The notes beneath the pieces were generated by a model, which searched no databases, had not been told where the DNA came from, and was given only the letters and a program-made list of their open reading frames with translations. Of a stretch of DNA of 64,000 nt, positions 14,846 through 52,529 are shown piece by piece; positions within the stretch are counted from its first letter, which is position 1; every line of letters starts with the position of its first letter. The stretch covers positions 54,332 to 118,331 of the forward strand of contig JACPSR010000142.1 in the NCBI GenBank assembly GCA_016193175.1. Direction: 5' to 3'. Source of the DNA: Candidatus Omnitrophota bacterium. GTDB lineage: Bacteria; Omnitrophota; Gorgyraeia; Aquiviventales; Aquiviventaceae. The position numbers and the translations under genes were made by a program.

Positions 14846-15762
14846 TGCGAGGCCGCATCATGAACGCCGTCTTCGCGCGGATGCAGGCTGATGAGAACGT
14901 CTTCTTCCTCACGGCCGACATGGGAATTAATTTGGTCGAGAAGATTCAACAGGTGTTTCCATCCCGGTATCTCAATGTGGGCATTGCCGAACAGAACTTG
15001 ATCGGCATCTGTGCCGGGCTGTGCAATCTGGGCTTCCGTCCGGTGGCCTATACGATCTCGCAGTTCATCAGCCATCGCTGCTATGAGCAAATTCGCAACG
15101 ACCTGAAGCTTCACGACTATCCTATTACGCTGCTGGGAACCTCTGCGGGGTTTGATAACGCTCCGCTGGGCCCGACCCACCATATCGTGGACGACTGGGG
15201 CGCGGTCCGCACCATCCCGGGGATTGACATCTACTGTCCGTCCAGCGTCAGTTATGCGGACACGCTCGTGGACAAGATCTTGGCGCAGCCTCGTCCGGCG
15301 TATGTGCGGATTCCAAAGGGAGCCTTTGAACAACCCGCCTCGCGAGACGATACCCTGTATCTCGAGGGGGCACGCGGGGGCCCCTTGCTGATCTCGTATG
15401 GGTCAACCGTACAGACGTGCTTAGCGCTTCAGGCGCGGCATGCGGAGGTATCAGTCCTGGTGTGTAATCGGTTGCGTCCACTGCAGGCCGATCTCGTGCG
15501 GGCCGCGCTGCAGCGGCATCCCAGCGCATTCGTGGTCGAGGATCATTTCCCCAGCAGCGGCCTGTACAACATGCTATGTCAGTTCTGCATGGAGCATCGC
15601 CTCGCCTGCCAGCTGAGCAGTTTGGGCCCGCGGGAGGAGTATCACCTGAAGGTCGGGGCCTCGGCAGGCTACTATCATCGGCTCTATGGTTTTGACGAAC
15701 AAGGGATCGAGCGCGCGTTGTGGGGCCAATCACATGCTCTCATTGATTCTCCCAACCTATAA
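14845..15762 (+). CDS. Transketolase, C-terminal (pyrimidine-binding) subunit
   Basis: FFLTADMG, NVGIAEQNLIGICAGL and GPTHH motifs. TGATG junction with the N-terminal subunit. Confidence 0.85.
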   Translation: MRGRIMNAVFARMQADENVFFLTADMGINLVEKIQQVFPSRYLNVGIAEQNLIGICAGLCNLGFRPVAYTISQFISHRCYEQIRNDLKLHDYPITLLGTSAGFDNAPLGPTHHIVDDWGAVRTIPGIDIYCPSSVSYADTLVDKILAQPRPAYVRIPKGAFEQPASRDDTLYLEGARGGPLLISYGSTVQTCLALQARHAEVSVLVCNRLRPLQADLVRAALQRHPSAFVVEDHFPSSGLYNMLCQFCMEHRLACQLSSLGPREEYHLKVGASAGYYHRLYGFDEQGIERALWGQSHALIDSPNL

Positions 15763-23325: not shown

Positions 23326-23413
23326 GCCAACCGTGTCATCCTTCGTTGAGACAGCGAGGCGGCTGTGCGCAGCCTATGAGGCGATGTACCTCGACGGTGG
23401 CGTGGCATGGTGA
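23326..23413 (+). pseudogene. C-terminal remnant of a paralog of CDS 18982-20076
   Basis: ARRLCAAYEAMYLDGGVAW* versus LDRLCADYEATYLDGGVRW*. DNA similarity runs from 23363, matching 20026 onward. It lies in otherwise non-coding 23281-23406. Confidence 0.55.
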
Positions 23414-24423
23414 TGGGCAGAGTGGCGACGCGGGTCGGGGTGCGGCGGGTGGCCGTCGTCGGAACGGGAAGCGCTGGCATGAGGCATCTGGATGTCCTAC
23501 GTCAACTCGACGGCGTTGAGTCGATCGCCGTGCCCAAGCGTCCCGAGCGTGCCGCAGAACTGGCCGGAGCTGGCCAGGCGGCGTTGCGCGATTTGCGCGA
23601 GGTGGTGGCGTCCGGTGCCACGCGCGCGATCATCGCGACGGATACCGGCTGTCACCTTGAAGATGGGCTTGCAGCGCTGGGGCAGGGGTTGGACCTGCTC
23701 ATCGAAAAGCCGCTGGCGACCAACGCCACCGACGCGGCACGGCTTCGCGCGGCGGCTGTCCACGCCGGGCGAAGACTATTCGTTGGTTGCGTCTTACGGT
23801 TTTCGGAATCCCTCAACGCCTTCCACTCGTTGCTGAAGCAGATCGGCCGGGTGCACTCGGTGCGCATCGAATGCCAGTCATATCTGCCGGACTGGCGGCC
23901 CGCCCGCCCCTATCAGGAGTCCTATGTGGCGCGTCGCGTAGAAGGCGGGGTCTTGTTAGATCTCATTCATGAGATCGACTACGCGGGGTGGATCTTCGGG
24001 TGGCCCAAGGCGGTTCAGGCGAGGCTACGCAACGTGGGGCGCTTGAGCATCGCGGAAGAGGAAACCGTTGATCTGCTGTGGGAAACGCCCATGGCCGGCT
24101 GCGTCTCGATGAGCTTGGATTATCTGACCCGCCCCCCACGCCGCGTGACGCGGGCCTGCGGGGAACGGGGGACCGTGGAGTGGGATGGCATCGCGGGGAC
24201 GGCGAGCTTGGCCCTTGCGGGACAAGCGCCGATGGTCGTCCGCTCTTCACAGACACGCGAGGAGATGTTCCTCGCCCAGGTGCGCGCGTTCCTCGAAGCG
24301 TGTGGTGACGGGCGCGATCCGCGACTGGCCACAGCTGAGGATGGCGTGAGGGCTCTGGCGGTCTGTGACGCAGCACGCCGGTCCTCTCAGAGCCGGCAGG
24401 AGGAGCCGGTGGTGATCCTATGA
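23407..24423 (+). CDS. Gfo/Idh/MocA family oxidoreductase (PtmF-like position in a nonulosonic acid cluster)
   Basis: RVAVVGTGSAGMRHL, LLIEKPLA (EKP motif) and a C-terminal alpha/beta domain. Directly upstream of neuA. Confidence 0.75.
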   Translation: MVMGRVATRVGVRRVAVVGTGSAGMRHLDVLRQLDGVESIAVPKRPERAAELAGAGQAALRDLREVVASGATRAIIATDTGCHLEDGLAALGQGLDLLIEKPLATNATDAARLRAAAVHAGRRLFVGCVLRFSESLNAFHSLLKQIGRVHSVRIECQSYLPDWRPARPYQESYVARRVEGGVLLDLIHEIDYAGWIFGWPKAVQARLRNVGRLSIAEEETVDLLWETPMAGCVSMSLDYLTRPPRRVTRACGERGTVEWDGIAGTASLALAGQAPMVVRSSQTREEMFLAQVRAFLEACGDGRDPRLATAEDGVRALAVCDAARRSSQSRQEEPVVIL

Positions 24424-25172
24424 GCGTCGGCAGGCGGTTGCTGGCGGTGATTCCCGCGAGGGGAGGATCGCGCGGGCTGCCGGGCAAGAACATCCGACTG
24501 TTTGCGGGGCTGCCCTTGATCGGCCATGCGGTTCGCTTTGCGCAAATGTGTCTTGAGATCACGCGAAGCGTCGTCTCCACGGATGACGAGGAGATTGCCC
24601 GAGTGGCGCGGAACTGTGGCGCGGAGGTCCCGTTCATCCGACCATCAGCGCTCTCGCAGGATGACACACCGCTGTGGCCGGTGGTTCGCCATGCGCTGGC
24701 ATGGGTCGAGGAGCACGAGGGAGAGGCCTACGACCTCGTGTTGCTCTTGGATCCCACCTCACCAGCGAGGGAGCCCTTGGATGTGAGCCAGGCGATGGAG
24801 CGGCTGCGGCACGCCCCAGAAGCCGACGGCATCATCGGGGTATCGCAGCCGGACTTCAACCCCATCTGGCACTGCGTGGTCGAACGTGACGGATGGATGG
24901 CCCATCTGATTGATAGCGGCAGGCAATTTCATCGTCGGCAGGACGTTCCCACGGTGTACCGCATCAACGGCTCGCTCTACCTGTGGCGGGCCGCTTTCGT
25001 CCGGGACCAAGCCGCTGCGTGGGAAGCGGGAAGGCACCTGATGTACGAGATTCCGGAGTCTCGGGCGATGTCGATCGACACGATCGAGGAGTTTGAACAG
25101 GCGGAGTTGTTGGTCACAGGGGGCCTCATCCATCTGCCGTGGGTGCAGGAGGACGAAAGCAGAGCAAGATGA
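24420..25172 (+). CDS. neuA: N-acylneuraminate (nonulosonate) cytidylyltransferase
   Basis: LAVIPARGGSRGLPGKNIRLFAGLPLIGHAV is the CMP-NeuAc synthetase family signature. Confidence 0.85.
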   Translation: MSVGRRLLAVIPARGGSRGLPGKNIRLFAGLPLIGHAVRFAQMCLEITRSVVSTDDEEIARVARNCGAEVPFIRPSALSQDDTPLWPVVRHALAWVEEHEGEAYDLVLLLDPTSPAREPLDVSQAMERLRHAPEADGIIGVSQPDFNPIWHCVVERDGWMAHLIDSGRQFHRRQDVPTVYRINGSLYLWRAAFVRDQAAAWEAGRHLMYEIPESRAMSIDTIEEFEQAELLVTGGLIHLPWVQEDESRAR

Positions 25173-26002
25173 CCAAGGGTCAGGTGACGGCAACGGCGAC
25201 GCGAACCCTCGCGGATCTCATGCGACTGTCAGGACGCAAGGCGCTGATTACTGGAGGGACCGGGCATGTGGGGGTGGCGGTCGGCGAGGCGCTGGTTGAG
25301 TTGGGCGCGACCGTGGCGGTGCTCGATGTCGATGCCGCGAGATGCCAGGAGCGCGCGGACGCCTTGGGCCGGATGCGAGCGCGCAGCGCGGTGGCGATTC
25401 CTTGCGACCTTCGTGACGAGCAAGCGACCCGGGGCGCCATCCACCGGTCGATTGAATGGCTGGGGGGTTTGGACATCCTCGTCCATTGCGCGGCCTATGT
25501 GGGGACGGACCAGCTCCCCGGCTGGGTGGTACCGTTTGAGCAGCAGACGGTGGACGCGTGGGATGCGGCCATGCGGGTCAATCTGACCTCCGCCTTCATT
25601 ATGGTGCAGGAAGCCCGCACGATGCTGGACGCCTCCGGTACCGGCTCGGTGATCCTCATTGGCTCGACGTACGGACTGGTCGGCCCTGATCCGCGCCTCT
25701 ACGAGGGTACGACGATGGGGACTCCCGCAGGTTACGCGGCTTCCAAGGGCGGCGTGCTGCAACTCACGCGGTATCTCTCGACCGTCCTGGCGCCACGCGT
25801 GCGCGTGAATGCCATCACCCCGGGAGGGATCTGGCGCAATCAGCCGGAGGCGTTCCACCAGCGCTATGTCAGCCGCACGCCGCTGGGCCGCATGGCTTCC
25901 GAGGAAGATCTGAAAGGGGCGGTCGCGTATCTGGCCAGCGACCTCTCGGCCTACGTGACAGGGCAGAATCTCGTCGTCGATGGAGGATGGACGGCATGGT
26001 GA
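25169..26002 (+). CDS. Short-chain dehydrogenase/reductase (PtmA-like)
   Basis: ALITGGTGHVGVAVG, YAASKGG catalytic Y-x3-K, and C-terminal VTGQNLVVDGGWTAW. Confidence 0.8.
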   Translation: MTKGQVTATATRTLADLMRLSGRKALITGGTGHVGVAVGEALVELGATVAVLDVDAARCQERADALGRMRARSAVAIPCDLRDEQATRGAIHRSIEWLGGLDILVHCAAYVGTDQLPGWVVPFEQQTVDAWDAAMRVNLTSAFIMVQEARTMLDASGTGSVILIGSTYGLVGPDPRLYEGTTMGTPAGYAASKGGVLQLTRYLSTVLAPRVRVNAITPGGIWRNQPEAFHQRYVSRTPLGRMASEEDLKGAVAYLASDLSAYVTGQNLVVDGGWTAW

Positions 26003-27039
26003 TCGCCGAGCGATCCGTCGGTCCGGGGCAGCCGTGCCTCATTATCGCGGAGGCCGGGGTCAATCATAACGGCGACATGGCGCTCGCGCGGCGCTTGATC
26101 GACGCCGCCGCCGAGGCCGGGGCTGACGCGGTCAAGTTCCAGACCTTCAAGGCCGAACGGTTAGCGAGCGCATCGGCTCCCAAGGCCGCTTATCAATGGC
26201 AGGCCACCGATCGCTGGGAATCGCAGCGCGAGATGCTGCGTCGATTGGAGCTGTCGGAATCGGCTCATCGAGGCCTCATGGTCTCTTGCCAGCAGCGCGG
26301 CATCCTGTTTCTCTCATCTGCTTTTGAGGAGGAAAGCGCCGATCTGTTGGAGCGGTTGGGCGTGTGCGCCTTCAAGATTCCATCAGGAGAACTGACGAAT
26401 CTGCGGTTCTTGGAGCATGTCGCTCAGAAGGGCAAGCCGATGATTGTGTCGACCGGGATGTCCACCCTCTCGGAGGTTGAGCAGGCGGTGCAGATCATTC
26501 GACGAGCCAGGAACGATCAACTCATCCTGCTCCATTGTGTCAGCGACTACCCGGCCAATCCATCGGATGCAAATCTGCGCGCCATGCATACGATGGCTGA
26601 GGCGTTCAACGTGCCAGTGGGGTATTCCGATCACACCCCGGGTGTCGATGTCGCCTTAGCCGCCGTGGCCTTAGGGGCGTGTGTCATCGAAAAGCATTTC
26701 ACGTTGGATCGGGCGCTTCCGGGACCGGATCATCGCGCTTCACTCGAGCCCAATGAGTTGCGTCAACTGGTTGAAGGTATTCGGAGGGTCGAAGCTGCGC
26801 TGGGACATGGGCGCAAGGAACCGGCTCAGCGCGAAGCCCCGACCGCCGCGGTGGCGCGCAAAAGTCTCGTGGCCGCCAGGGATATTCCGGCTGGGAGTCT
26901 CCTGACCGAAACACTCATTGTGGCCAAGCGTCCCGGGACCGGTTTACCGCCAGCCCTCTTGCCTCAACTGGTTGGACGAAAGACCGTCCACGATATTCCT
27001 GCCGGCGCGCTCTTGACCCTCGACATGGTGGCTTCATGA
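25987..27039 (+). CDS. neuB: N-acetylneuraminate/legionaminate synthase family (NeuB) with C-terminal SAF domain
   Basis: PCLIIAEAGVNHNGDMALARRLIDAAAEAGADAVKFQTF and GYSDHTPG. An alternative start at 25996 gives an ATGGTGA overlap. Confidence 0.9.
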   Translation: MDGMVIAERSVGPGQPCLIIAEAGVNHNGDMALARRLIDAAAEAGADAVKFQTFKAERLASASAPKAAYQWQATDRWESQREMLRRLELSESAHRGLMVSCQQRGILFLSSAFEEESADLLERLGVCAFKIPSGELTNLRFLEHVAQKGKPMIVSTGMSTLSEVEQAVQIIRRARNDQLILLHCVSDYPANPSDANLRAMHTMAEAFNVPVGYSDHTPGVDVALAAVALGACVIEKHFTLDRALPGPDHRASLEPNELRQLVEGIRRVEAALGHGRKEPAQREAPTAAVARKSLVAARDIPAGSLLTETLIVAKRPGTGLPPALLPQLVGRKTVHDIPAGALLTLDMVAS

Positions 27040-28961
27040 GAACGATTGGGGTGGTGACGGTTGGTCGCTCAGATTACGGCATCTACGTGCCCATCCTGCG
27101 CGCCATTCAGCACGAGCCGGCTCTGCAGTTGCATCTCATCGTTAGCGGGATGCATCTGTTGGAGGAGTTCGGGTTGACGGTGCGCGAGATTGAAGCCGAC
27201 AGATTTCCGATCGGCGCGCGCGTGTTCCTCCCGTTGCCTGAGGACAGCCCCGAGGCGATCGCGGCGGCGATCGGTGCGGCGGTGACGGGGTTTGCTCGCG
27301 CGTATGCCTCGCAGCGGCCGGATCTGTTGATCGTGCTGGGGGACCGGTTCGAGATGTACGCCGCGGCGGTGGCGGCTTTGCCCTTGAAGATTCCGGTGGC
27401 GCATATCCATGGTGGGGAACTGACGCAAGGTGCGATGGATGACGCGCTGCGTCATTCACTGACGAAACTCAGCCATCTTCACTTCGTCGCGACGGAGGAG
27501 TATGCCCACCGCGTCATCCAACTCGGGGAAGAGCCCTGGCGCGTGACGGTGTCGGGTGCGCCGAGCTTGGATCACGTCGGGATGGTGCCGTTGCTGACGG
27601 CTGAAGCCCTGTGTAACCGGTTTGGATGGCATTGGGAGGCGGCGCCGCTACTGGTGACCTACCATCCGGTGACACTGGAGTACGAGCAGACCGAGTGGCA
27701 GATGACTGAACTCCTCGACGCCCTGGAGGAATGCAAGCGGCCCATGATCTTCACGATGCCCAATGCCGACATGCATGGCCGTGTGATTCGACGACTCCTC
27801 ACAGCGTTCATCGCCTCCCACCCCAATGCGCACGCGGTGGAGAATCTTGGAACCCAAGGCTATTTCAGCTTGATGGCCGCTGCCGCGGCGATGATCGGAA
27901 ACTCCTCCAGCGGTCTGATTGAAGCGCCGTCGTTCGGTCTGCCGGTCGTGAACATCGGGACGAGGCAACAGGGGCGGGTACGGGCCTCGAACGTCATTGA
28001 TGTGGGCTATAGTCGAACGGAGATCATCCGCGGCATTCGCCAGGCGCTGACGGCCGAGTTCCGAGCCGCCATCCGCCATGGCACCAACCCCTATGGCGAT
28101 GGGCACGCCGCCACGGTGATCGTGAACACCCTCAAGGCGATGCCGTTGGATGATCGGTTGATCAAAAAGCGATTCGTCGATCTGCCGGTGGAGAGGCCGG
28201 ACCGTGCTGACTCGCCGGCCCTCGTGCCAACTCGGGGTGAACCGATGGAACGGTGTGTGATCCTTGGGGGCGGAGGGCACGCCCGTGTGGTCATCGACAG
28301 CCTCCTCGCCAGCAAGCTGGCGGTGCCGTATGCCGTCGTTGACGCTGATCGGTCGCTGTGGGGCAAGGAGCTGTTGGGCGTGCCGGTCGTCGGGGACGAT
28401 GAGCGGCTGCGAGAACTGCGCTGTGAGGGGGTGACGCGATTCATCGTGGGGCTTGGCGGGGTCGGGGATAACGGCCCGCGACAGCAGCTCTTTTGTCTGG
28501 GAATGACCAGTGGTCTTGCCCCGCTGACGGTATGCCACCCGTCTGCGATTTGTTCACCCTCAGCGGTGATCGGTGAGGGATCCTTTCTCGCGCCGGCAAC
28601 CGTGGTGAACTCAGGGGCCGGACTGGGGGTGAATGTGATTGTGAATACGGGGGCGATCGTGGAACATGACTGCGCCATCGGTGACCACGTCCACCTCGCG
28701 ACCGGGGCAAGACTCTCAGGGCACGTCCTCGTCGGCGCGGGCGCCCATATTGGCGCCGGGGCCACCATTCGGCAGCGTGTGACGATCGGCGAGGGGGCGA
28801 TTGTTGGCGCGGGCGCGGTCGTCGTGAAATCGGTTGAGCCCTGGACGGTTGTGGTGGGCGTGCCCGCCCGAGTCCTGGAGCAAGAGCCGGCTGACGCTCA
28901 CGACAAAACGCATGACCGCCAACACGTCTCAGGGCGACAACAGAAGGAAGGGGCCCTATGA
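27036..28961 (+). CDS. neuC: Fusion protein: hydrolysing UDP/GDP-N-acetylhexosamine 2-epimerase (NeuC/LegG-like) with a NeuD/PglD-family hexapeptide acetyltransferase
   Basis: The N-terminal ~385 aa start IGVVTVGRSDYGIYVPILRAI. The C-terminal ~220 aa contain VILGGGGHARVVIDSL plus left-handed beta-helix repeats (GAHIGAGATIRQRVTIGEGAIVGAGAVV). Confidence 0.85.
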   Translation: MRTIGVVTVGRSDYGIYVPILRAIQHEPALQLHLIVSGMHLLEEFGLTVREIEADRFPIGARVFLPLPEDSPEAIAAAIGAAVTGFARAYASQRPDLLIVLGDRFEMYAAAVAALPLKIPVAHIHGGELTQGAMDDALRHSLTKLSHLHFVATEEYAHRVIQLGEEPWRVTVSGAPSLDHVGMVPLLTAEALCNRFGWHWEAAPLLVTYHPVTLEYEQTEWQMTELLDALEECKRPMIFTMPNADMHGRVIRRLLTAFIASHPNAHAVENLGTQGYFSLMAAAAAMIGNSSSGLIEAPSFGLPVVNIGTRQQGRVRASNVIDVGYSRTEIIRGIRQALTAEFRAAIRHGTNPYGDGHAATVIVNTLKAMPLDDRLIKKRFVDLPVERPDRADSPALVPTRGEPMERCVILGGGGHARVVIDSLLASKLAVPYAVVDADRSLWGKELLGVPVVGDDERLRELRCEGVTRFIVGLGGVGDNGPRQQLFCLGMTSGLAPLTVCHPSAICSPSAVIGEGSFLAPATVVNSGAGLGVNVIVNTGAIVEHDCAIGDHVHLATGARLSGHVLVGAGAHIGAGATIRQRVTIGEGAIVGAGAVVVKSVEPWTVVVGVPARVLEQEPADAHDKTHDRQHVSGRQQKEGAL

Positions 28962-30505
28962 TTCTGGTAACGATTGTCAGACCGCCCGTGGTGTTCTCCC
29001 GGCGGTCCTATAGCGTCGCCATCGTGCCCCCGCTTGGGCCCGCCTATTTAGCGGCGGCGCTGCGAACAGCAGGGCATCAGGTGAGGATCGTTGATGCCGT
29101 GGGGGGACGGATTTCGCACATCGGGGCCACCGCACGGCCGAACCTCCTCTATCAGGGGCTCTCGATCGACGAGATGATCGCCGGCATGGACCCCGAGACG
29201 CAGCTCATGGCCGTGTCGGCCATGTTCTCACAGGATTGGCCGCATGTCGAAGTCTTGATCGCGAAGATTGCGCAGCGGTTTCCAGAGGTCCCGATCGTGG
29301 TCGGAGGAGAACATGCCACCGCCGCGTGGGACTACATCTTGGACACCTCGCCAGCGATCACCTGTGTCGGTCTGGGCGAGGGGGAAGAGACCATTTGTGA
29401 TCTGGCCAGGTGGGTCGAACACGGAGGCGACCTGAGCGCCATCCCGGGCATCGCCTACCGGCAAGCCGGGCGTCCCGTCATGACGTCGCCGCGCAAACGG
29501 ATCATGGCCGTCGATGACATTCCCCCTCCGGCCTGGAATTTGGTTCCGCTCGAGGCCTATCTGGACGGCGGCTACGGCCACGGGGTCGATTTGGGACGGA
29601 GCATGCCGATCTTGGCCACACGCGGATGCCCATTCCAGTGCACGTTCTGCTCAAACCCGGCGATGTGGACGACCCGCTATGTGATGCGGGATGTCGGCAA
29701 AGTCGTCGATGAAATTGCGCGCTATCTGCGCGAGTATCGCGCGACGAACGTCGATTTTTACGACCTCACCGCCATCATCAGGAAAGATTGGATCATGAAG
29801 TTCTGCGACGAAATTCTGCACAGGCGGCTGACACTCACCTGGCAGCTTCCGAGCGGAACGCGCAGCGAAGCCCTTGACGCCGAAGCGCTGCGCAAAATGT
29901 TTGAGGCTGGATGCCGCAACCTGACCTATGCCCCTGAGAGCGGGTCCGAGCGGACATTGAAGGCGATCAAGAAAGAAGTGCGCTTGCCAAAGATGGTCAG
30001 ATCGATCAAAGCGGCGAAGCGCGCGGGCATTCATCTCAAGTGTAACCTGATCATCGGCTTTCCGAAGGAACGGCGCCGTGACCTCTTTCGCACGATCTGG
30101 TTTGCCTTGAAGATGGCCTGGATGGGCGTCGATGACGCCCCGCTCTTTCTGTTTTCGCCCTACCCCGGAAGCGAGTTGTATCACTATCTGCGCTCAACCG
30201 GAGCGATCCAGAAGATGGACAACGACTATTTTGAGTCGCTGCTCTGCTTTATGGATCTGTCCAAGTCGAGCCGCTATTGTGAGCGCATCGGGCCTCTGGA
30301 GCTCAACATCTACCGATGTGTCGGGATGTCCCTCTTCTATGTGCTGAGCTACCTGCGGCACCCCGCACGAATCGTGCGGACGATCCGGAACCTCTGGCAC
30401 AGCGAGTCAGCCACCGTGTTTGAGCAACGGCTCATTGAGATGAAGCGACGAGTGTCCATGGCGATGGCAGGCCGGTCGGTCGAATCGGCGGTGAATTCTC
30501 GATGA
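28958..30505 (+). CDS. B12-binding domain radical SAM enzyme (class B)
   Basis: N-terminal cobalamin-binding-like Rossmann region and radical SAM cluster motif RGCPFQCTFCSNP. Confidence 0.8.
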   Translation: MILVTIVRPPVVFSRRSYSVAIVPPLGPAYLAAALRTAGHQVRIVDAVGGRISHIGATARPNLLYQGLSIDEMIAGMDPETQLMAVSAMFSQDWPHVEVLIAKIAQRFPEVPIVVGGEHATAAWDYILDTSPAITCVGLGEGEETICDLARWVEHGGDLSAIPGIAYRQAGRPVMTSPRKRIMAVDDIPPPAWNLVPLEAYLDGGYGHGVDLGRSMPILATRGCPFQCTFCSNPAMWTTRYVMRDVGKVVDEIARYLREYRATNVDFYDLTAIIRKDWIMKFCDEILHRRLTLTWQLPSGTRSEALDAEALRKMFEAGCRNLTYAPESGSERTLKAIKKEVRLPKMVRSIKAAKRAGIHLKCNLIIGFPKERRRDLFRTIWFALKMAWMGVDDAPLFLFSPYPGSELYHYLRSTGAIQKMDNDYFESLLCFMDLSKSSRYCERIGPLELNIYRCVGMSLFYVLSYLRHPARIVRTIRNLWHSESATVFEQRLIEMKRRVSMAMAGRSVESAVNSR

Positions 30506-32025
30506 CGCGAGGAGGAGGTTGGCGGCTCCCGCTGCTGCTCTATCTGGCGGGCCTGCTCCATTGGATCGGCTTCCTGTATCTCGATGTCACGCCCTCCGGC
30601 CAGGAGCGGGAACTGGTGTCCATAGCGCTCCGGAGTCCTGAGACGCTCTTGAAGCGTCCGAACTTCGGGATGGAAGACGGCGTCTACATCGGCGACGTCT
30701 GGTTCGTCTATGAGCGCATGCTCACGGCGCTCCAGCAGGCGGTTCGCAGCCGCCAGATCCCCTACCATCTGCCTGGCCTGAGCGGCTATGAGATGATGCC
30801 AACCACCGCCTCGCCGGTCGGCGATCGGCTCTTCGGTTTTCCCAATGGCTGGCCCTGGTCGCCGGAGGCGCTCCTCTTGGCCGTCCTGGATCTTCCAACC
30901 TTCGTCATCGTGACGTGGCTCATCATGTACTCGGTGGGATTTGCGGGGTGCCTCTTGATCCGGCGCCAGTACAGTCTGGGGCCGATGGCCTTCACGTTCC
31001 TGGCGGTGCTGTTCCATCTGAACGGTTGGATCACCACCCACATGACGACCAAGATGCCCGATAACACCGGCTACTATCTGAGCCCGTATCTCGTGCTGCT
31101 CCTGCTGAGGGCCGGGGAAGTGGCCCCCACGGATCGCTACGCGCAGCGGCGTCTCGGGTTATGGATCGGGTTGGTGATGGCGCTGATGTGGTGGCAGGGG
31201 TCGTGCCATCCCTTCATCCACTGGCTCACCATGCTGGGCTTCTGGGGCATTGTGAATTGGAGGAAATGGCGGGTCACGGTGGTGAGTGTGGTGAGCGCGT
31301 TTGCCCTGGCGGCGTTTCGCGTGATTCCGCCTGCGCTCAGTTGGGGCATGAAGCACCGCTATCATGTGGACAATCCCGCGATCATGGGGTTCTGGTCATT
31401 CGATCAATACATCGACGCGCTCGCGGTGTGCCACCCGTTCATCCCCGACGGGGGGTGGGAGCAATTCAATTGCTACGTCAGCGTGTTTGGCTTATGGGCG
31501 ATTCTCTATCTCGCGTTCTGGGCACCATGGAACGGCTCGAGGTGGGTGCGCCTGCGTCCCTGGCAGTCCTTGCTCATTCCCTCCGTGATCTTGGCGGTGA
31601 TGTCGTTCCGTCACATGAAGAGCGTGCTCATTCCGAATTGGATCCCCCTCTTTAACGCCGAGGCCTACACAGGACGATACATGATGATCCCCCTGGTCGT
31701 GTGGATCATTGTCGCGAGTATCAACCTCCAGGGCGCGGTCGAGGCGTTCTGGTCGCAGCGGCGGCTGCGATGGCTCATGGTCAGCGGGCTTGGCGTGATC
31801 GCGGCGTCCTTGCTGAACCATTCGCGCTTGTGGCGCATCTGGATGGCGACAAAGTTTGCGCACTGGGGTGGCTATGGGCCCACGCTGCCTGCGCGGTTGG
31901 CGAACGACATGACCGACCGCCTGTACATCAACGCGGTCGACCTGAGTCTGGGCATCAGCCTGGTCGCCTTGGTCGTGGTGATCGCCTTGTTGGTCGTGCC
32001 GCGCAAGCGACAGGGCGTGGGATGA
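30502..32025 (+). CDS. Polytopic membrane protein of unknown function (polymerase, ligase or GT-C candidate)
   Basis: 507 aa with many hydrophobic helices. ATGA junctions on both sides. The last codons QGVG* coincide with a solo junction-element arm. Confidence 0.55.
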   Translation: MTRGGGWRLPLLLYLAGLLHWIGFLYLDVTPSGQERELVSIALRSPETLLKRPNFGMEDGVYIGDVWFVYERMLTALQQAVRSRQIPYHLPGLSGYEMMPTTASPVGDRLFGFPNGWPWSPEALLLAVLDLPTFVIVTWLIMYSVGFAGCLLIRRQYSLGPMAFTFLAVLFHLNGWITTHMTTKMPDNTGYYLSPYLVLLLLRAGEVAPTDRYAQRRLGLWIGLVMALMWWQGSCHPFIHWLTMLGFWGIVNWRKWRVTVVSVVSAFALAAFRVIPPALSWGMKHRYHVDNPAIMGFWSFDQYIDALAVCHPFIPDGGWEQFNCYVSVFGLWAILYLAFWAPWNGSRWVRLRPWQSLLIPSVILAVMSFRHMKSVLIPNWIPLFNAEAYTGRYMMIPLVVWIIVASINLQGAVEAFWSQRRLRWLMVSGLGVIAASLLNHSRLWRIWMATKFAHWGGYGPTLPARLANDMTDRLYINAVDLSLGISLVALVVVIALLVVPRKRQGVG

Positions 32026-32027
32026 TC
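32011..32027 (+). repeat. Solo right arm of the junction element
   Basis: CAGGGCGTGGGATGATC is identical to the right arms of copies 1, 3 and 4. It carries the stop of 30502-32025 and the ATG (32022) of the hisF paralog. No convincing left arm is present. Confidence 0.7.
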
Positions 32028-32900
32028 GTGCGGCTGATTCCGCGGCTGGACATCAAGGGACCGAATTTGGTGAAGGGGATCCATCTCGAGGGTCTGCGCG
32101 TGCTCGGGAAACCCGAACGATTTGCGCGGATCTACTACGAGCAGGGGGCCGATGAGCTGTTGTACATGGATGTGGTGGCCAGTCTCTATGGCCGTAAGAG
32201 CCTTTTAGACATCGTGACGAGAACCGCCAAGGAGCTCTTTATCCCCCTGACAGTTGGCGGGGGGTTGCGGACGTTAGAGGATATCACACAGGCGTTATGG
32301 GCTGGAGCGGACAAAGTCGCCATCAACACCGCGGCCATCCAGCAGCCCCAACTGATTCATGACGCCGCGCGGAAGTTCGGCTCTTCCACGATCGTCGTCT
32401 CCATTGAGGCGATGCACAAGCCTGATGGACGATACGAGGCCTATACCGATAACGGGCGCCAACGCACAGGCGTCGATGCCGTGGAGTGGGCCCAGCGGGC
32501 AGCGGAGCTGGGTGCCGGCGAGCTGTTGGTGACATCGATCAACCGTGAGGGAACCGGCACCGGGTTTGATGTCGAGCTGACCAGACAGATTGCTGAACGC
32601 GTTCCGATTCCTGTGATCGCATGCGGAGGGGCTGGGATGGTCAGGCACGTCTACGAGGTGATCACGCAGGGCAAGGCCGATGCCGTCTGTCTGGCGTCGA
32701 TCCTGCACTACGGTGTCGTTCGGAACCTCCCACCCAGTGAACGCGACGTTGCTGAAGAAGGCAATACCGCGTATCTCAGAAGCGGCAAGGGCTTTTCGCG
32801 AGTCGAGGAGGCGACCTTGCCGGACATCAAGGCCTACCTCCTCGAGCGAAGGATCTTCTGCCGCGGGGCTCTGCGGGAGTCCGCCAATGCGATCGTGTAA
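32022..32900 (+). CDS. hisF: Imidazole glycerol phosphate synthase cyclase subunit paralog (HisF/WbuZ-like)
   Basis: RLIPRLDIKGPNLVKGIHLEGLRVLGKP and GADELLYMDV. Located in a glycan cluster next to hisH- and wbuX-like genes. Confidence 0.85.
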   Translation: MIVRLIPRLDIKGPNLVKGIHLEGLRVLGKPERFARIYYEQGADELLYMDVVASLYGRKSLLDIVTRTAKELFIPLTVGGGLRTLEDITQALWAGADKVAINTAAIQQPQLIHDAARKFGSSTIVVSIEAMHKPDGRYEAYTDNGRQRTGVDAVEWAQRAAELGAGELLVTSINREGTGTGFDVELTRQIAERVPIPVIACGGAGMVRHVYEVITQGKADAVCLASILHYGVVRNLPPSERDVAEEGNTAYLRSGKGFSRVEEATLPDIKAYLLERRIFCRGALRESANAIV

Positions 32901-33579
32901 GAAGCGGGTGGCGATTGTCGATTACGGGATGGGCAATCTGTTCAGCGTCCAGCAGGCCTGCGAGCACGTGGGGCTGGAGGCGGCGATCACCTCATCCGCA
33001 CAGGCCATCCTGTCGGCGGACGGGGTGATTCTCCCCGGCGTCGGGGCCTTCGGGGACGCCATGGCGACGCTCGCGCAGCGAGATCTGATCGGCGTCCTGA
33101 GGGACGTGGCCGACTCGGACAAACCGTTCCTCGGGATCTGTTTAGGCATGCAGTTGCTCATGACGGAAAGCCATGAGTTTGGGCGGCACGAGGGGTTGAA
33201 GATCTTGGAGGGTGACGTCGTGCGCTTGGCCGAGACGCGTCCCGAAGATGGTCGGATCGTGAAGGTCCCTCAAGTCGGGTGGAATCGAATCCGGCAGATC
33301 AACGGGCGACCGTGGGACGATTCCTGGTTGGCAGGGCTGGCGGATGGCACGTTTATGTACTTCGTCCACTCCTTCTATGTCCAACCGGCCGATCCGAGCC
33401 TGATCTGCGCCACGACCCGGTATGGGCAGACGACGTTTTGCTCAAGCCTTCGGCGTGGGAACGTGTTAGCCTGTCAGTTTCACCCGGAGCGCAGCGGCCC
33501 TCAGGGGCTGCAGGTGTATGCGAATTTCGGCGCGGCGCTGCAGCGGCCGGTTGCGGAATCGAGGGTCTCGACTCGATGA
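32887..33579 (+). CDS. hisH: Glutamine amidotransferase subunit paralog (HisH/WbuY-like)
   Basis: VAIVDYGMGNLFSVQQA, catalytic GICLGMQLL and FHPERS. Confidence 0.85.
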   Translation: MRSCKKRVAIVDYGMGNLFSVQQACEHVGLEAAITSSAQAILSADGVILPGVGAFGDAMATLAQRDLIGVLRDVADSDKPFLGICLGMQLLMTESHEFGRHEGLKILEGDVVRLAETRPEDGRIVKVPQVGWNRIRQINGRPWDDSWLAGLADGTFMYFVHSFYVQPADPSLICATTRYGQTTFCSSLRRGNVLACQFHPERSGPQGLQVYANFGAALQRPVAESRVSTR

Positions 33580-34799
33580 GTCTGGCCGTCCCCACACAAC
33601 GCTCCGAAGCCAAATATGGGTTGCCCGAGGCGGTGGTCTTCTGTCAGCGCTGCGTCATGTCGAACCAGCGTCCCTGCTCCTCGGTTGAATTCCGGCACAC
33701 GAAGGACCGGAGACATCGAACCCTCCGGTTTGACGATGAAGGGGTCTGCGATGCCTGCCGGGTCGCCGAACAGAAGGAGCAGATTGACTGGGCCAAGCGG
33801 GAAGAGGAACTGCTCCGGTTGCTTGACCGGCATCGCCGACGCGACGGCGGGTATGACTGCATCGTGCCGGGCAGCGGCGGCAAGGACAGCGCCTACGCCG
33901 CGCATGTGCTGAAGTACAAGTACGGGATGCACCCCTTGACGGTCACCTGGCCTCCGATCCTCTATACCGAGATCGGATGGAAGAACTTCAGGAGCTGGCT
34001 CGAGGTGGGCGGCTTTGACAACATCACGTTCAAGCCAAACGGCCGGGTGCATCGATTGTTGACACGGCTGGCCATTGAACACCTCCTGCATCCCTTTCAG
34101 ACCTTCATTCTTGGACAGAAGAATCTCGCTCCAAAGATCGCGTTACAAACGCGGGTGCCGCTGATTTTCTATGGCGAAAACGAAGCCGAGTACGGCAACC
34201 CTATTGCCGATACGAGCTCGTCGCTGCGCGATCGATCGTACTACACGATGCGCAACCTCTCGGAAGTGTACCTCGCGGGACTGTCCATCCCCGAGCTGCA
34301 GGAGCGGTATCGCCTGTCCTTGAATGATCTCAGCGCCTACCTGCCGGCCGACGGCCACGCCCTGGAAGAGTCGCAGATCGAAGTCCACTACCTTGGCTAC
34401 TACCTCAAGTGGACACCGCAGGAGAGCTACTACTACGCCGTAGAGCATACGGGCTTTGAGGCCAACCCGTTTCGAACCGAAGGGACGTACAGCAAGTACA
34501 ACAGCTTGGATGACAAGATCGACGGCCTGCACTACTACACGACGTACATCAAATTTGGCATCGGACGCGCCACGTATGATGCCTCGCAGGAAATCCGCAA
34601 CAAGCACCTCACGCGAGAGGAGGGGGTGGCACTCGTGCGGCGCTTTGACGGGGAGTTTCCGGAGCGGTACCTCCGTGAGGTGATGGACTTCATCGAATGC
34701 TCGCCAGAGCGGTTCCTGGAGTTGTGCGATACGTTCCGCTCCCCCCATCTCTGGAAGAAGGTCGAGGGTCGCTGGATGCTCCGTTGCCAGGTGGCATGA
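33576..34799 (+). CDS. N-acetyl sugar amidotransferase (WbuX/PseA/PtmG family, PP-loop ATPase)
   Basis: CQRCVMSN ... CDAC zinc-ribbon-like N-terminus and PP-loop CIVPGSGGKDSAY. Confidence 0.85.
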   Translation: MSLAVPTQRSEAKYGLPEAVVFCQRCVMSNQRPCSSVEFRHTKDRRHRTLRFDDEGVCDACRVAEQKEQIDWAKREEELLRLLDRHRRRDGGYDCIVPGSGGKDSAYAAHVLKYKYGMHPLTVTWPPILYTEIGWKNFRSWLEVGGFDNITFKPNGRVHRLLTRLAIEHLLHPFQTFILGQKNLAPKIALQTRVPLIFYGENEAEYGNPIADTSSSLRDRSYYTMRNLSEVYLAGLSIPELQERYRLSLNDLSAYLPADGHALEESQIEVHYLGYYLKWTPQESYYYAVEHTGFEANPFRTEGTYSKYNSLDDKIDGLHYYTTYIKFGIGRATYDASQEIRNKHLTREEGVALVRRFDGEFPERYLREVMDFIECSPERFLELCDTFRSPHLWKKVEGRWMLRCQVA

Positions 34800-34812: not shown

Positions 34813-35889
34813 ATGTACACGGACCTGACCACGTTGTGCATCGGACGAGCGAGTTCGTTACGAGCCGCCATAGCCCAGATGGACCGCAGCCGATTTGGCA
34901 TCGTGCTGGTGACCGACGACCAGCGACGCCTGGTGGGCACGATCACCGATGGGGATATCCGCCGCGCCATTTTGGCGAACGTGGATCTTGAGCAATCGGT
35001 GAACGTGCTCCTGGCGCGAAAGGCAACAACTCGCTTTGCGAAGCCCATCACGGCCGCGGCGGGCTCCGATCCCAATCTCTACCTGGCACTCCTGAAACAG
35101 CACAACATCCTTCACCTTCCGCTGATCGACGATGAGCAGCACGTCGTGGGGATGGTGACGAGGGATGAATTTCTGCCCAACGAGGTGCTGCCGCTCCACG
35201 CAGTGGTCATGGCGGGAGGGCTCGGTAGTCGTCTGCACCCCCTCACCGAAGAGCTCCCGAAACCGATGCTGCCGATCGGCAATCGTCCATTGCTCGAGAT
35301 CATCATCGCGCAGCTACGAGAGGCCGGCATTCGTCGCGTCCAGGTCACGACGCACCACAAGCCGGAGAAGATTGAGGAGCATTTTGGCGATGGGAAGGAC
35401 TTCGGGATCAACCTCTCCTATGTCGCAGAAGACCGACCGTTAGGAACAGCGGGGGCCCTGGGATTGCTCGGCGTTCCCAAGGAGACGACGTTGGTCATGA
35501 ACGGCGATATCCTGACGCAGGTGGATTTCCGGGCGATGCTGGTCTACCACCGGGAGTACGGGGCGGACCTCACGATGGCAGTGCGCCAGTACGACCTCAA
35601 GGTGCCCTACGGCGTGGTCGAGTGCGAGGATTCGGTGGTCCGTTCCCTCAGCGAAAAACCCACGGTGGGATTTTTTGTCAACGCGGGCATTTATCTGCTG
35701 GAGCCTCCCGTCTACCAATTCATCCCGAACGGCCAACCGTTCGACATGACGGAGTTGATCCAGTGCCTGCTCAAGGCGGGGAGGATGGTCGTCAGCTTCC
35801 CGGTCCGGGAATACTGGCTTGATATCGGAGAGCACGCGGGGTATGAGCGGGCAGAGCAAGACGTTCGCAACGAGAAGGTGCGGGTATGA
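34813..35889 (+). CDS. CBS-domain sugar-phosphate nucleotidyltransferase (PtmE/HddC-like)
   Basis: Tandem CBS region (LVGTITDGDIRR, VVGMVTRDEF), then NTP-transferase motif AVVMAGGLGSRLHPLTEELPKPMLPI. Confidence 0.8.
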   Translation: MYTDLTTLCIGRASSLRAAIAQMDRSRFGIVLVTDDQRRLVGTITDGDIRRAILANVDLEQSVNVLLARKATTRFAKPITAAAGSDPNLYLALLKQHNILHLPLIDDEQHVVGMVTRDEFLPNEVLPLHAVVMAGGLGSRLHPLTEELPKPMLPIGNRPLLEIIIAQLREAGIRRVQVTTHHKPEKIEEHFGDGKDFGINLSYVAEDRPLGTAGALGLLGVPKETTLVMNGDILTQVDFRAMLVYHREYGADLTMAVRQYDLKVPYGVVECEDSVVRSLSEKPTVGFFVNAGIYLLEPPVYQFIPNGQPFDMTELIQCLLKAGRMVVSFPVREYWLDIGEHAGYERAEQDVRNEKVRV

Positions 35890-36002
35890 TCCCACGCCCT
35901 AGCTGGGCTCCGCCTAAAGGCGGAGCCGCGAAACGGTGCCCCGTGTTTCTGTCATTGATGTTTCGCCCCACCAATAGGCGGGGCAGCCAGGGCGTGGGAT
36001 GA
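35886..36002 (+). repeat. Palindromic junction element, copy 5 (117 bp)
   Basis: Left arm ATGATCCCACGCCCT 35886-35900 and right arm CAGGGCGTGGGATGA 35988-36002. Hairpins GGCTCCGCC-TAAA-GGCGGAGCC 35906-35927 and CCCCACC-AATA-GGCGGGG 35966-35983. Inner stem CGAAAC/GTTTCG 35929-35934/35960-35965. Upstream TGA 35887-35889 and downstream ATG 35999 lie in the arms. Confidence 0.9.
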
Positions 36003-36970
36003 AGGTGCTGCTAACAGGCGGGGCGGGCTATGTGGGGTCAGTCGTGGCGCACGACTTGCTGTCCCGTGGACATGAAGTGCGGGTCGTTGATATGTTGCTG
36101 TACGGAGGCCAGGGGCTGTTGGGGTTGTACCAGGATGAGCGATTCAGTTTCTTGGGTGGGGATCTCCGGTCTGCACAGCTCGTCGAATTGGCCCTGCACG
36201 GTATGGACGCCGTGGTCCATTTGGCGGCGATCGTGGGCGACCCGGCCTGCGCGCGCCAGCCTGAGCTCGCGCGTGCCGTGAACCTCGATGCTTCCCTCCA
36301 GCTCTTCCGCGCGAGCTGCGCGCGAGAGGTTGAGCGGTTCGTATTCGCCTCGACCTGCAGCAACTACGGTCGGATGTCGAACCCGTCTGTCTGGCTCACC
36401 GAGGAGTCCGAACTGCGTCCCGTCTCGCTGTACGCCCAAACCAAAGTGGAGGTGGAACAAGCCTTCTTGAGTCCCTCGGCGGCTTCTCGGCCCGTCACGA
36501 CCGTCCTCCGGTTCGCGACGGTGTTTGGGGTGTCACCTCGGATGCGGTTTGATCTCACGGTGAACGAGTTCACGATGGAGCTGCTGACAAAACGCAAGCT
36601 CACGATCTACGGCGCGCAGTTCTGGCGGCCCTACCTCCACGTCCGGGATGCGGCGCGGGCCATCGGGTTGGTGCTGGAGAGTCCGCTCGACAAGATCGCC
36701 AACCAGGCGTTCAACGTGGGCGATGCCAATCAGAACTACCAGAAGGGGGCATTAGCGGAGCTGATCCGCGCGCAGATCGGCAACCACGCGCGGATTGAGC
36801 GCGTTGAGAAAACGGAGGATCCGCGGGATTACCGGGTCTCATTTGACAAGATTCAACGGGGGTTGGGTTTCCAGATCACCCGGACGGTCGAGCAGGGCGT
36901 TCAAGAGCTCATCGAGGCCATCTCCTCCGGCGTCATCACCGAATGCGATCACTCACGGTATCGAAACTAG
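35999..36970 (+). CDS. NAD-dependent sugar epimerase/dehydratase (extended SDR; LegB-like dehydratase candidate)
   Basis: MKVLLTGGAGYVGS and catalytic YAQTK. Confidence 0.8.
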   Translation: MKVLLTGGAGYVGSVVAHDLLSRGHEVRVVDMLLYGGQGLLGLYQDERFSFLGGDLRSAQLVELALHGMDAVVHLAAIVGDPACARQPELARAVNLDASLQLFRASCAREVERFVFASTCSNYGRMSNPSVWLTEESELRPVSLYAQTKVEVEQAFLSPSAASRPVTTVLRFATVFGVSPRMRFDLTVNEFTMELLTKRKLTIYGAQFWRPYLHVRDAARAIGLVLESPLDKIANQAFNVGDANQNYQKGALAELIRAQIGNHARIERVEKTEDPRDYRVSFDKIQRGLGFQITRTVEQGVQELIEAISSGVITECDHSRYRN

Positions 36971-38181
36971 CGCCCCGCCGAGCGCCTGGCGGTCCTGAGG
37001 CGGCCCGAGCGCCTGAAATCCCGCTCTCGGTCCCCGCGCTGCGTGGGAACGAATGGAAGTATCTCAAGGCATGCCTGGATACCGGCTGGGTCTCATCCGC
37101 CGGACCGTTTGTGGAACGGTTCGAGCAAGCGTTCGCCCACCATCTTGGTGGAGCCGTGTATGCCGTGGCGGTCGTGAATGGGACCGCGGGTCTGCATCTG
37201 GCGCTTCGCGCCATCTGTGTCGAGCCTGAGGACGAGGTGATCGTGCCAACCCTTACGTTCATTGCACCGGTCAACGCGATCCGGTATTGCGGGGCGCATC
37301 CGGTGTTTATCGATGCGGATCCGCAGACCTGGCAGATCGATGTCAACCAGGTGGGGCGATTTTTGGGGCAGGAATGCGAAGTTCGACCGGACGCCCCAGG
37401 GCCAGCGGTGTCCGCGAAGACCTGCTGGAACAAGCGGACCGGACACCGCGTGCGGGCCATTCTGCCTGTCCATGTACTCGGATTGGCGTGCGACATGGAG
37501 CGCCTTAACGCGTTGGCCAACACCTACCACCTCAAGGTCATTGAAGATGCGGCTGAGGCGATCGGTGTGCGCTATCACAACCGGCCGGCTGGCATGTGGG
37601 GAGACATCGGCGTGTTCAGCTTTAACGGCAACAAGACGCTGACCTGTGGTGGCGGAGGGATGGTTGTCGCGGAGAAACGGTACACGGACTACGTTCGTTA
37701 TCTCTCCACGCAAGCCAAGGATGATCCGCGGGACTACTATCATAAAGAAGTGGGATACAACTATCGGCTGACGAACCTCCATGCGGCGCTCGGGTTGGCT
37801 CAACTCGAACAACTCGATGCCTTCCTGCAGCGCAAGCGGAACATCGCGAGACGGTATCGTGAGGCGTTCGCCGAAATCCCCAACGTCACGCCCATGCCGC
37901 AGCAAGACGGGGCGGCCTCTTGGTTATACACGATCCTGACGCCGGACCGTGAGCAGCGGGATTCGTTCTTAGCTGCGCTGGAGGATGAGGGCATTGAAGC
38001 CCGGCCCTTGTGGCGGCCGATTCATACCTTGCCGCCCTACAAGGGCTGCCAGAGCGCCGGATCGCTTGAGACCGCGGTGAATCTCTACGAGCGGGCGGTC
38101 AGTCTTCCCAGCAGCGTGGGATTGAGCGATCAGGAGTTGGCGCGGTGCGTCCAGACGGTACGCGCGTGGGCGCAGCGATGA
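36943..38181 (+). CDS. DegT/DnrJ/EryC1/StrS family PLP-dependent sugar aminotransferase
   Basis: VVNGTAGLHLALRA, and FSFNGNKTLTCGGGG containing the PLP lysine. The start is uncertain (28-nt overlap with the upstream gene if 36943). Confidence 0.85.
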   Translation: MRSLTVSKLAPRRAPGGPEAARAPEIPLSVPALRGNEWKYLKACLDTGWVSSAGPFVERFEQAFAHHLGGAVYAVAVVNGTAGLHLALRAICVEPEDEVIVPTLTFIAPVNAIRYCGAHPVFIDADPQTWQIDVNQVGRFLGQECEVRPDAPGPAVSAKTCWNKRTGHRVRAILPVHVLGLACDMERLNALANTYHLKVIEDAAEAIGVRYHNRPAGMWGDIGVFSFNGNKTLTCGGGGMVVAEKRYTDYVRYLSTQAKDDPRDYYHKEVGYNYRLTNLHAALGLAQLEQLDAFLQRKRNIARRYREAFAEIPNVTPMPQQDGAASWLYTILTPDREQRDSFLAALEDEGIEARPLWRPIHTLPPYKGCQSAGSLETAVNLYERAVSLPSSVGLSDQELARCVQTVRAWAQR

Positions 38182-40316: not shown

Positions 40317-40943
40317 ATGGGGAACGCGCACAGACCGGACATCCGTCGAGCCGTGTTTCTCGATCGGGATGGCACCATTGCCCAGTACCGGGAGTACTGT
40401 TGTCGCCCGCAGGATTTTCGATTGCTCCCAGGGGTGGGCCACGCCATTCGGACATTGAATCACGCGGGGCTGGCGGTGATCGTCATGACCAACCAATCGG
40501 CGATTGCGCGAGGCTGGTTGACGGGGGACGTCTTGGAGCAGATTCACCGAAAAATGCGCCGTGCCCTCAGTCGCGTGGGGGCGCGGATCGACGCCATCTA
40601 CGTCTGTCCGCACCATCCGGACGACGGATGTGCGTGTCGAAAACCTGGGATCGCGATGCTCCAGCAGGCTGCAAAGGACTTTGAGCTGTCCTTGGCGTCC
40701 TCCTATGTGGTGGGAGACCGGATGCTGGATGTGCTCTCGGGGCGCGCCGCGGGAAGTCAGACTATCCTTGTCCGCTCAGGCCACAGACTGGAACCGACCA
40801 ACGGCGTTACGCCTGACCACGAGGCGCAGGACCTGAGCGAGGCCGTGGCGTGGATCCTTCAACAGGAGGGGCTGCAAGCGGGACGGGGCAGGCCTCTTGC
40901 CGCGGCGCGAGGTCCGAGCGACCATGCGGGAGTGCAGAGATGA
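40317..40943 (+). CDS. gmhB: D-glycero-D-manno-heptose 1,7-bisphosphate phosphatase (HAD-IIIA)
   Basis: AVFLDRDGTI, VMTNQSAIARG and Zn-binding CPHHPDDGCACRKP. Confidence 0.85.
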   Translation: MGNAHRPDIRRAVFLDRDGTIAQYREYCCRPQDFRLLPGVGHAIRTLNHAGLAVIVMTNQSAIARGWLTGDVLEQIHRKMRRALSRVGARIDAIYVCPHHPDDGCACRKPGIAMLQQAAKDFELSLASSYVVGDRMLDVLSGRAAGSQTILVRSGHRLEPTNGVTPDHEAQDLSEAVAWILQQEGLQAGRGRPLAAARGPSDHAGVQR

Positions 40944-49591: not shown

Positions 49592-49601
49592 TGTCTCGCC
49601 G

Positions 49602-52480: not shown

Positions 52481-52529
52481 CGGCGAACACTATGGCACAG
52501 GGACAGTCCTGAAGAGAAAGGTGGAAGCC

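Follow-up and report, generated by a model that had tools for sequence, protein, structure and literature searches.

The 64,000-nt stretch of Candidatus Omnitrophota DNA analyzed here (the window; all coordinates count from its first letter) encodes on its plus strand, at 27036..28961, a single ATG-to-stop open reading frame (ORF) of 1926 nt and 641 amino acids (aa), in which a hydrolyzing nucleoside diphosphate (NDP)-sugar 2-epimerase is followed by an NDP-4-amino-sugar N-acetyltransferase. This protein is real and very probably bifunctional, and we read it with good confidence as a LegG-LegH enzyme of the GDP-sugar pathway to legionaminic-acid-type (5,7-diamino) nonulosonic acids that was born by fusion of legG and legH; domains, key residues, gene context and evolutionary origin are shown by the analysis, and substrate, reaction order, oligomeric state and any kinetic benefit are what we infer beyond this. 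The product is identical to MBI3021809.1 of a Candidatus Omnitrophota metagenome-assembled genome (MAG), an entry that carries the GenBank name 'UDP-N-acetylglucosamine 2-epimerase (hydrolyzing)' only.

The N-terminal domain of the NeuC/LegG type (residues 3-366, 27042..28133) and the C-terminal domain of the NeuD/PglB/VioB, that is PglD/PerB/LegH, type (residues 407-612, 28254..28871) were delimited with the NCBIfam models TIGR03568 and TIGR03570, and Pfam placed Epimerase_2 at residues 22-367 (283 bits), PglD_N at 408-486 and Hexapep at 563-596. Both sets of boundaries agree with the limits of about 1-385 and 400-620 proposed in an earlier sequence-only reading of this DNA, which had described a single 641-aa polypeptide, exactly as found in the ORF listing, with no stop between the domains. 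The latter holds as well. The motifs flanking the junction, DDRLIKKRFVD and CVILGGGGHARV, share one frame, the other two frames both containing stops. The interdomain linker (residues 381-405, 28176..28250, VDLPVERPDRADSPALVPTRGEPME) had been called short and Pro/Arg-rich, a roughly right description (5 Pro and 3 Arg among 25 residues) to which 3 Asp and 3 Glu have to be added; it is free of homopolymer runs. An in-frame ATG (Met404, 28245..28247) lies three codons 5' of the acetyltransferase core, with GGGGTGAACCG just upstream. Its position matches the start of the separate acetyltransferase gene in the split relative L001, which begins MAEAKQCVILGGGG and has an AAGGAG ahead of it. This ATG may be a relic of, or an internal start for, a once-separate acetyltransferase gene.

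The epimerase half matches the NeuC_NnaA model TIGR03568 from model position 2 to 365 of 365 (439 bits versus a cut-off of 235.9, E = 1e-131), whereas the non-hydrolyzing wecB model reached 87 bits only, versus a cut-off of 210. Among solved structures, the Acinetobacter baumannii GDP/UDP-N,N'-diacetylbacillosamine (diNAcBac) 2-epimerase (5zlr; 264 bits, 37-38 % identity) matched residues 1-369 best, and human GNE (4zht) matched this half at 191 bits. D103, D135 and H210 align with D112, D143 and H220 of GNE, which we take to be residues with catalytic roles; H125 and E128 are identical in the solved A. baumannii enzyme, and E134 of GNE aligns with His125. R11, D103, R104, H123, H125, E128, D135, H210 and the GNSS motif at 288-291 are kept in 118-120 of 120 homologs, fused or unfused, and D103, R104, E128, D135 and H210 are invariant in all 24 fusions that we assembled (see below). 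Genetic context (LegC and PtmE-like genes) and the closest solved homolog point to a LegG-type substrate (GDP/UDP-diNAcBac) rather than UDP-GlcNAc.

The acetyltransferase half, a PglD_N nucleotide-binding subdomain followed by a left-handed beta-helix, scored 209.3 bits against TIGR03570 (NeuD/PglB/VioB; cut-off 160.8, E = 4e-62, residues 407-612). The GDP-sugar enzyme PerB (4ea7), which matched best among solved structures, aligns across the whole domain at 138 bits, Neisseria PglB at 107 bits and Campylobacter jejuni PglD at about 87 bits. The predicted catalytic base, His544 in the sequence VEHDC (codon 28665..28667), aligns with His141 of PerB, the residue mutated in PDB entries 4eaa and 4eab, and also with the His of the EHE motif in C. 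jejuni PglD (2npo). E543-H544-D545 is invariant across all 24 fusions. A degenerate acetyltransferase half is ruled out by this invariance together with the above-cut-off TIGR03570 score, so that the loss of the catalytic His, which the sequence-only reading had named as a possible undoing of the fusion, fails as an objection.

An AlphaFold2 model of the monomer, built on an 88-sequence alignment, folds both domains with confidence. Its mean predicted local distance difference test (pLDDT) value was 90.4, with low confidence confined to residues 386-394 in the linker (pLDDT < 50) and 626-641 at the C-terminus; linker and C-terminal tail are thus predicted to be disordered. The epimerase half superposes on 5xvs with a TMt of 0.93 and a root-mean-square deviation of 2.3 Å (TMt 0.91-0.93 across 5zlr/5xvs), supporting a two-Rossmann (GT-B-like) fold, and the acetyltransferase half superposes on PerB with a TMt of 0.94. 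Fold comparison of the model found no PDB chain covering both halves.

Taken as a LegG-LegH enzyme, the protein would act as follows. The C-terminal PglD/PerB-type domain would use acetyl-CoA to N-acetylate the 4-amino group of NDP-4-amino-4,6-dideoxy-GlcNAc (the LegH step), whereupon the N-terminal NeuC-type domain would strip off the nucleotide and invert C-2, giving 2,4-diacetamido-2,4,6-trideoxy-mannose (the LegG step), the presumed substrate of the NeuB/LegI synthase encoded directly upstream. The published order of steps is LegB, LegC, LegH (N-4 acetylation), LegG (NDP removal and 2-epimerization), LegI and LegF (PMC5378307), and an identical order is given by PMC6137143; the two sources agree with the earlier statement that the N-acetyltransferase of the Leg pathway acts immediately before the hydrolyzing epimerase. 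The NeuC-type and NeuD/PglD-type assignments and their placement in this pathway, also part of that reading, are now backed concordantly by curated models, PDB alignments and gene context.

The 1926-nt gene was assembled separately, with zero mismatches, from the sequencing runs SRR12113390, SRR12113419 and SRR12113422 (L019, L020, L021) as well as in the NCBI MAG. Another 23 proteins of 568-669 aa with the same architecture and 50-66 % identity were found in NCBI, JGI, ENA and Logan assemblies of independent metagenomes, such that the fusion is carried by at least 24 protein clusters, including that of the window. Their linkers, between about 5 and about 90 residues long, are conserved within groups of fusions, yet unrelated between groups. 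The fusion is rare and recurrent, and to date it is seen only in sequences from metagenomes. Among the 150 relatives nearest to the acetyltransferase half in a library of 1.84 billion representatives, about 130 stand alone and only one, P0011, is fused to an epimerase. The best 120 matches to this half were all 213-264 aa long, in a list that omitted the window protein itself and was not exhaustive, so that fusions missing from it are no evidence; searches with sub-fragments generally missed the full-length query and known fusions and under-sample long multi-domain proteins. Two adjacent genes are the common state among the relatives.

Several relatives illustrate what follows the epimerase gene where it is unfused, L018 and L001 displaying the ancestral split state. 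An Armatimonadetes MAG (L018) shows the same synteny, with NeuC and acetyltransferase (1455-2147) genes 28 nt apart. L001 encodes the closest epimerase (77 %) and then, overlapping by 8 nt, a separate gene of 444 aa (6441-7775), whose acetyltransferase domain is 62 % identical to that of the window protein within the same boundaries and is C-terminally fused to a formyltransferase domain. In L002 (7191-7859) and L017 (2826-3503) a plain formyltransferase occupies the slot after the NeuC/LegG gene, as would fit a position reserved for N-acylating the 4-amino sugar. The varying content of this slot suggests that one nonulosonic acid is made in N-acetyl and N-formyl versions.

Bootstrapped neighbor-joining trees (100 bootstraps, best 120 matches) were calculated for each half. 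A single clade of all 24 fusions appeared in 0 of 100 bootstraps for the epimerase half and equally in 0 of 100 for the acetyltransferase half. In the epimerase tree, the window protein grouped with three unfused epimerases (88/100) and the fusion P0002 with the unfused P0032 (100/100), and in the acetyltransferase tree the nearest neighbor of the window protein was never a fused protein (0/100). Four smaller groups of fusions were recovered with both halves (support given for epimerase and acetyltransferase half, respectively): group A with P0003, P0006, P0009 and P0015 (77 and 71), group B with P0010, P0011 and P0013 (100 and 100), group C with P0017, P0020, P0024, P0025 and P0026 (100 and 100), and group D with P0004 and P0007 (98 and 90). 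Since there is no single fusion clade, the nearest relatives of the window protein are unfused and linkers are group-specific, the fusion has been gained, or lost, several times, that in the window being specific to its lineage. On our reading, legG and legH became fused several times independently in uncultivated lineages, through loss of the stop and start between the adjacent, overlapping genes.

The acetyltransferase module was encountered with other partners as well. L005 (1513-3378 of Nanoarchaeota MAG contig JAHJEM010000137.1) encodes a 621-aa PglD-type acetyltransferase with a C-terminal DegT-type aminotransferase, resembling a LegH-LegC fusion; considered at first sight a full-length epimerase-acetyltransferase fusion, this locus instead comprises two genes, a stand-alone NeuC followed by the acetyltransferase-aminotransferase. 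P0283 (573 aa, from the representative library) joins the module to CBS and NTP-transferase domains (LegH-PtmE type), P0306 and P0316 join it to methyltransferases, and P0241, P0257, P0342 and P0356 contain at least two copies of it in tandem. P0259, P0287 and P0368, candidates for epimerase fusions by their length, turned out to be GNAT/FemAB domains joined to the acetyltransferase.

What the fusion may be good for is a related issue. Since C3 trimers are the working form of this acetyltransferase class (PMC9271549), the fused protein would be at least trimeric, with three epimerase domains arranged peripherally around a trimeric acetyltransferase core. The likely main effect would be obligatory 1:1 co-expression and tethering of two consecutive activities. 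Following the channeling proposal of the earlier sequence-only reading, one could alternatively regard the fusion as an evolved substrate-channeling machine that shields a labile intermediate, in place of a near-neutral tethering of neighbors. The LegH and LegG steps are indeed consecutive, intermediates of the Leg pathway have been noted as labile (PMC5378307), repeated independent fusion could reflect recurrent selection, and the best model reached a predicted template modeling score (pTM) of 0.67. However, the linkers of widely differing length lack any conserved sequence and are predicted to be disordered, the window protein and P0002 both have unfused closest relatives with the same synteny, indicating that the split state works equally well, and the module is also fused with formyltransferase, aminotransferase, PtmE-like, methyltransferase and GNAT partners, a sign of general fusion-proneness, while an epimerase partner is found just once among its 150 nearest representatives. 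Variable disordered linkers, split close relatives and many fusion partners are what one would expect of an easily fusing module and not of a specifically evolved channel. We thus favor tethering and co-expression and consider a dedicated channel unlikely. A more elaborate version, in which recurrent LegG-LegH fusion was selected for hand-over of the labile NDP-diacetamido sugar within a D3-hexamer-like metabolon whose stoichiometry might be tuned by separate production of the acetyltransferase from the Met404 start, seems to us a little less probable still; it builds on the idea that a dimeric epimerase, assumed by analogy with solved relatives, and a trimeric acetyltransferase would create a symmetry mismatch giving rise to a higher-order assembly such as a D3 hexamer.

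The reading as a tethered LegG-LegH enzyme gains from the genes around it. The fused gene is part of a plus-strand gene run with overlapping stops and starts: at either end, stop and start codons share an ATGA, with the NeuB-type gene upstream and with the next gene downstream. A sequence scan detected no promoter-like or terminator-like sites above shuffle expectation. The upstream cassette, all on the plus strand like the genes downstream, comprises a GFO/IDH/MocA oxidoreductase (23407-24423), a CMP-sugar synthetase of the CTP_transf_3 family (24420-25172; 71.8 bits versus a cut-off of 22.6), a short-chain dehydrogenase/reductase (SDR; 25139-26002) and the NeuB/LegI-type synthase (25987-27039; TIGR03569, 460 bits versus 399.65). 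Directly downstream follow a B12-binding radical SAM gene (28958-30505), which overlaps the stop of the fused gene, an ORF of 507 aa without Pfam or NCBIfam match (30502-32025), WbuZ/HisF-like, HisH-like and WbuX amidotransferase genes (31701-34799; WbuX 368.6 bits versus 203.2), a PtmE-like gene with CBS plus NTP_transferase architecture (34813-35889), an SDR dehydratase (35999-36970), whose role is assigned only by its position in the conserved PtmE-SDR-LegC order, and a LegC-family aminotransferase (36943-38181; TIGR04181, 443.2 bits versus 420). A PtmE homolog has been taken as a marker of the GDP-linked route (PMC5378307); the best NCBIfam match of the PtmE-like gene was a guanylyltransferase, below the cut-off of that model. 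The cluster is best read as a Campylobacter-type GDP-sugar legionaminic-acid cassette and would then hold a complete Leg-type set of genes. The fusions P0002 (L003), P0017 (L015) and P0013 reside in the same cassette of CMP-transferase, NeuB, fusion, PtmE-like, SDR and DegT genes with HisF/HisH, and P0016 (L016) shares CMP-transferase, NeuB, fusion and HisF/HisH, with no PtmE-like, dehydratase or DegT genes within the 9 kb shown around it. No further PglD-type or NeuC-type gene was detected in the 64-kb window (phmmer, E <= 1), nor a separate PglD_N gene near these four fusions, which leaves the fused domain as the only LegH candidate. Being the sole acetyltransferase in a cluster with a LegC aminotransferase, it presumably acetylates the 4-amino group of an NDP-4-amino-4,6-dideoxyhexose.

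It could be argued that the acetyltransferase half performs an acylation other than the LegH step, be it N-acetylation of GDP-GlcN, NeuD-like O-acetylation of the finished nonulosonic acid, or both N-acetylations. In C. jejuni, N-acetylation of GDP-GlcN is assigned to GlmU. The cluster has one acetyltransferase gene, whereas the GDP route requires two N-acetylations, although the genome could carry a GlmU gene at another place. TIGR03570 spans NeuD, PglB and VioB without resolving the substrate, and the NeuD enzymes of E. coli K1 and group B Streptococcus are described as O-acetylating sialic acid (PMC2408645). Yet the five closest solved enzyme types are PerB, PglB, PglD, A. baumannii 4m9c and VioB, among which PerB (perosamine), PglD (bacillosamine) and VioB are 4-amino-sugar N-acetyltransferases according to deposited names or papers, and the catalytic EHD motif agrees with enzymes of the PerB/PglD type. 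Moreover, the LegC-family aminotransferase would make a 4-amino group requiring acylation, and relatives carry a formyltransferase in the same slot. On balance, we consider such a deviating acylation improbable.

Some points do weigh against our overall reading. The CMP-transferase scored below the PseF cut-off, with no Leg-specific model matched, and the SDR dehydratase reached 80 bits versus a cut-off of 475 for the LegB model TIGR04180. TIGR03570 is a subfamily model that specifies neither substrate nor acylated position. The trees are neighbor-joining trees of a biased sample, the best 120 matches, and the number of fusion events is approximate. The suspicion that sequencing, assembly or gene calling united two adjacent genes, which may be nourished by the two L001 genes overlapping by just 8 nt in different frames, where a small indel would fuse them, and by the fact that every copy of exactly this gene comes from one set of related runs, has next to no probability, and an artefact is very unlikely because the junction is in frame and free of homopolymers, the DNA is identical in three independent run-level assemblies plus the NCBI MAG, and 23 fused homologs have group-specific linkers and both halves conserved; the sequencing or assembly error named beforehand as a possible refutation fails on these same grounds.

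Compared with known systems, the window protein combines familiar parts in an unfamiliar manner. In the Leg pathways of C. jejuni (LegG, Cj1328; LegH, Cj1298), Tannerella forsythia and Halorubrum, the same two families perform consecutive steps, and the clusters share PtmE-like, LegC, LegI and LegF homologs with the window; there, however, LegG and LegH are separate proteins, often from non-adjacent genes, whereas the window encodes one polypeptide in which the order of epimerase and acetyltransferase is the reverse of the reaction order. The A. baumannii 2-epimerase (5zlr/5xvs) resembles the N-terminal half down to identical numbering of H125, E128 and D135, but is a stand-alone enzyme of about 380 aa without a C-terminal acetyltransferase. 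PerB (4ea7) and C. jejuni PglD share PglD_N, the left-handed beta-helix fold and the catalytic His with the window protein, and PerB acts on a GDP-linked 4-amino-4,6-dideoxyhexose; both are stand-alone proteins of about 200-220 aa, their sugars being perosamine (PerB) and the UDP-linked bacillosamine precursor (PglD).

Fusions with other partners provide the nearest architectural parallels. In vertebrate GNE (UDP-GlcNAc 2-epimerase/ManNAc kinase, 4zht), an N-terminal epimerase of the same family is joined to an enzyme of a nonulosonic-acid pathway, but its partner is the downstream ManNAc kinase instead of an acetyltransferase of the upstream step, and it has Glu134 where the window protein and 5zlr have His125; Pfam and NCBIfam gave no match to a ROK-family ManNAc kinase domain in the C-terminal half of the window protein. 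Neisseria PglB (4m98 being its acetyltransferase domain) is, like the window protein, a PglD-type acetyltransferase fused to a pathway neighbor, and Mimivirus L142 (N-acetyltransferase plus glycosyltransferase) comes fused in some closely related strains and split in others; the partners of PglB and L142 are transferases acting after acetylation, whereas here the partner is a hydrolyzing epimerase. The NeuB-phosphatase of Leptospira is a lineage-specific fusion in a nonulosonic-acid cluster as well and has been used to infer pathway logic, although its domains and pathway step differ.

Other features of the cluster concern the end product. WbuZ/HisF-like, HisH-like and WbuX form a set associated with acetamidino groups, and the trio also lies 3' of the epimerase/acetyltransferase genes in L001, L002, L017 and L018. 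Owing to its presence, the end product is probably an acetamidino derivative and not plain Leg5,7Ac2. A second B12-binding radical SAM gene is found in the sugar cluster at 44725-46284; the best family matches of both radical SAM genes were radical SAM enzymes of the C- or P-methyltransferase type, all far below cut-off, and the two enzymes may modify the nonulosonic acid or its N-acyl group. Large ORFs (507-794 aa) without Pfam match are located at 3136-5520, 30502-32025, 38145-40316, 40850-42607 and 54244-55941, those at 30502-32025, 38145-40316 and 40850-42607 lacking an NCBIfam match too. The 723-aa ORF among these, 3' of the LegC gene, has a counterpart of 715 aa at the same position in L003, for which reason it probably belongs to the conserved components of the system and may be a transferase. 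Within 13985-15762 and 49470-53288, a transketolase split into adjacent N- and C-half genes, YdjC-like, carbamoyltransferase and transaldolase-like genes hint at further unusual sugar chemistry. All long ORFs with a family match are on the plus strand, GC skew is positive in 32 of 32 two-kilobase bins (1-64000), and the window thus gives the impression of a single, very long glycan-biosynthesis island of co-oriented genes.

No paper on a fusion of epimerase and acetyltransferase, be it LegG-LegH or NeuC-NeuD, and no reports on nonulosonic acids in Omnitrophica turned up in literature searches. The window protein represents a new architectural variation on known enzymes and is not mechanistically surprising: both halves are ordinary members of well-characterized families, joined by an ordinary kind of evolutionary event. 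Its value is rather that of a natural 'Rosetta stone', as the fusion independently links a PglD-type acetyltransferase to the hydrolyzing epimerase in legionaminic-acid synthesis and points out the LegH candidate in clusters where this enzyme is hard to assign, as has been the case in T. forsythia (PMC5378307). The GenBank and JGI names of the fused proteins mention the epimerase alone, so that LegH would mistakenly be listed as absent when pathways are reconstructed from such MAGs. The protein would furthermore represent a ready single-polypeptide catalyst for two steps toward CMP-legionaminic acid, and matched natural fused and split relatives are at hand for probing the kinetic benefit of fusing consecutive sugar-nucleotide enzymes.

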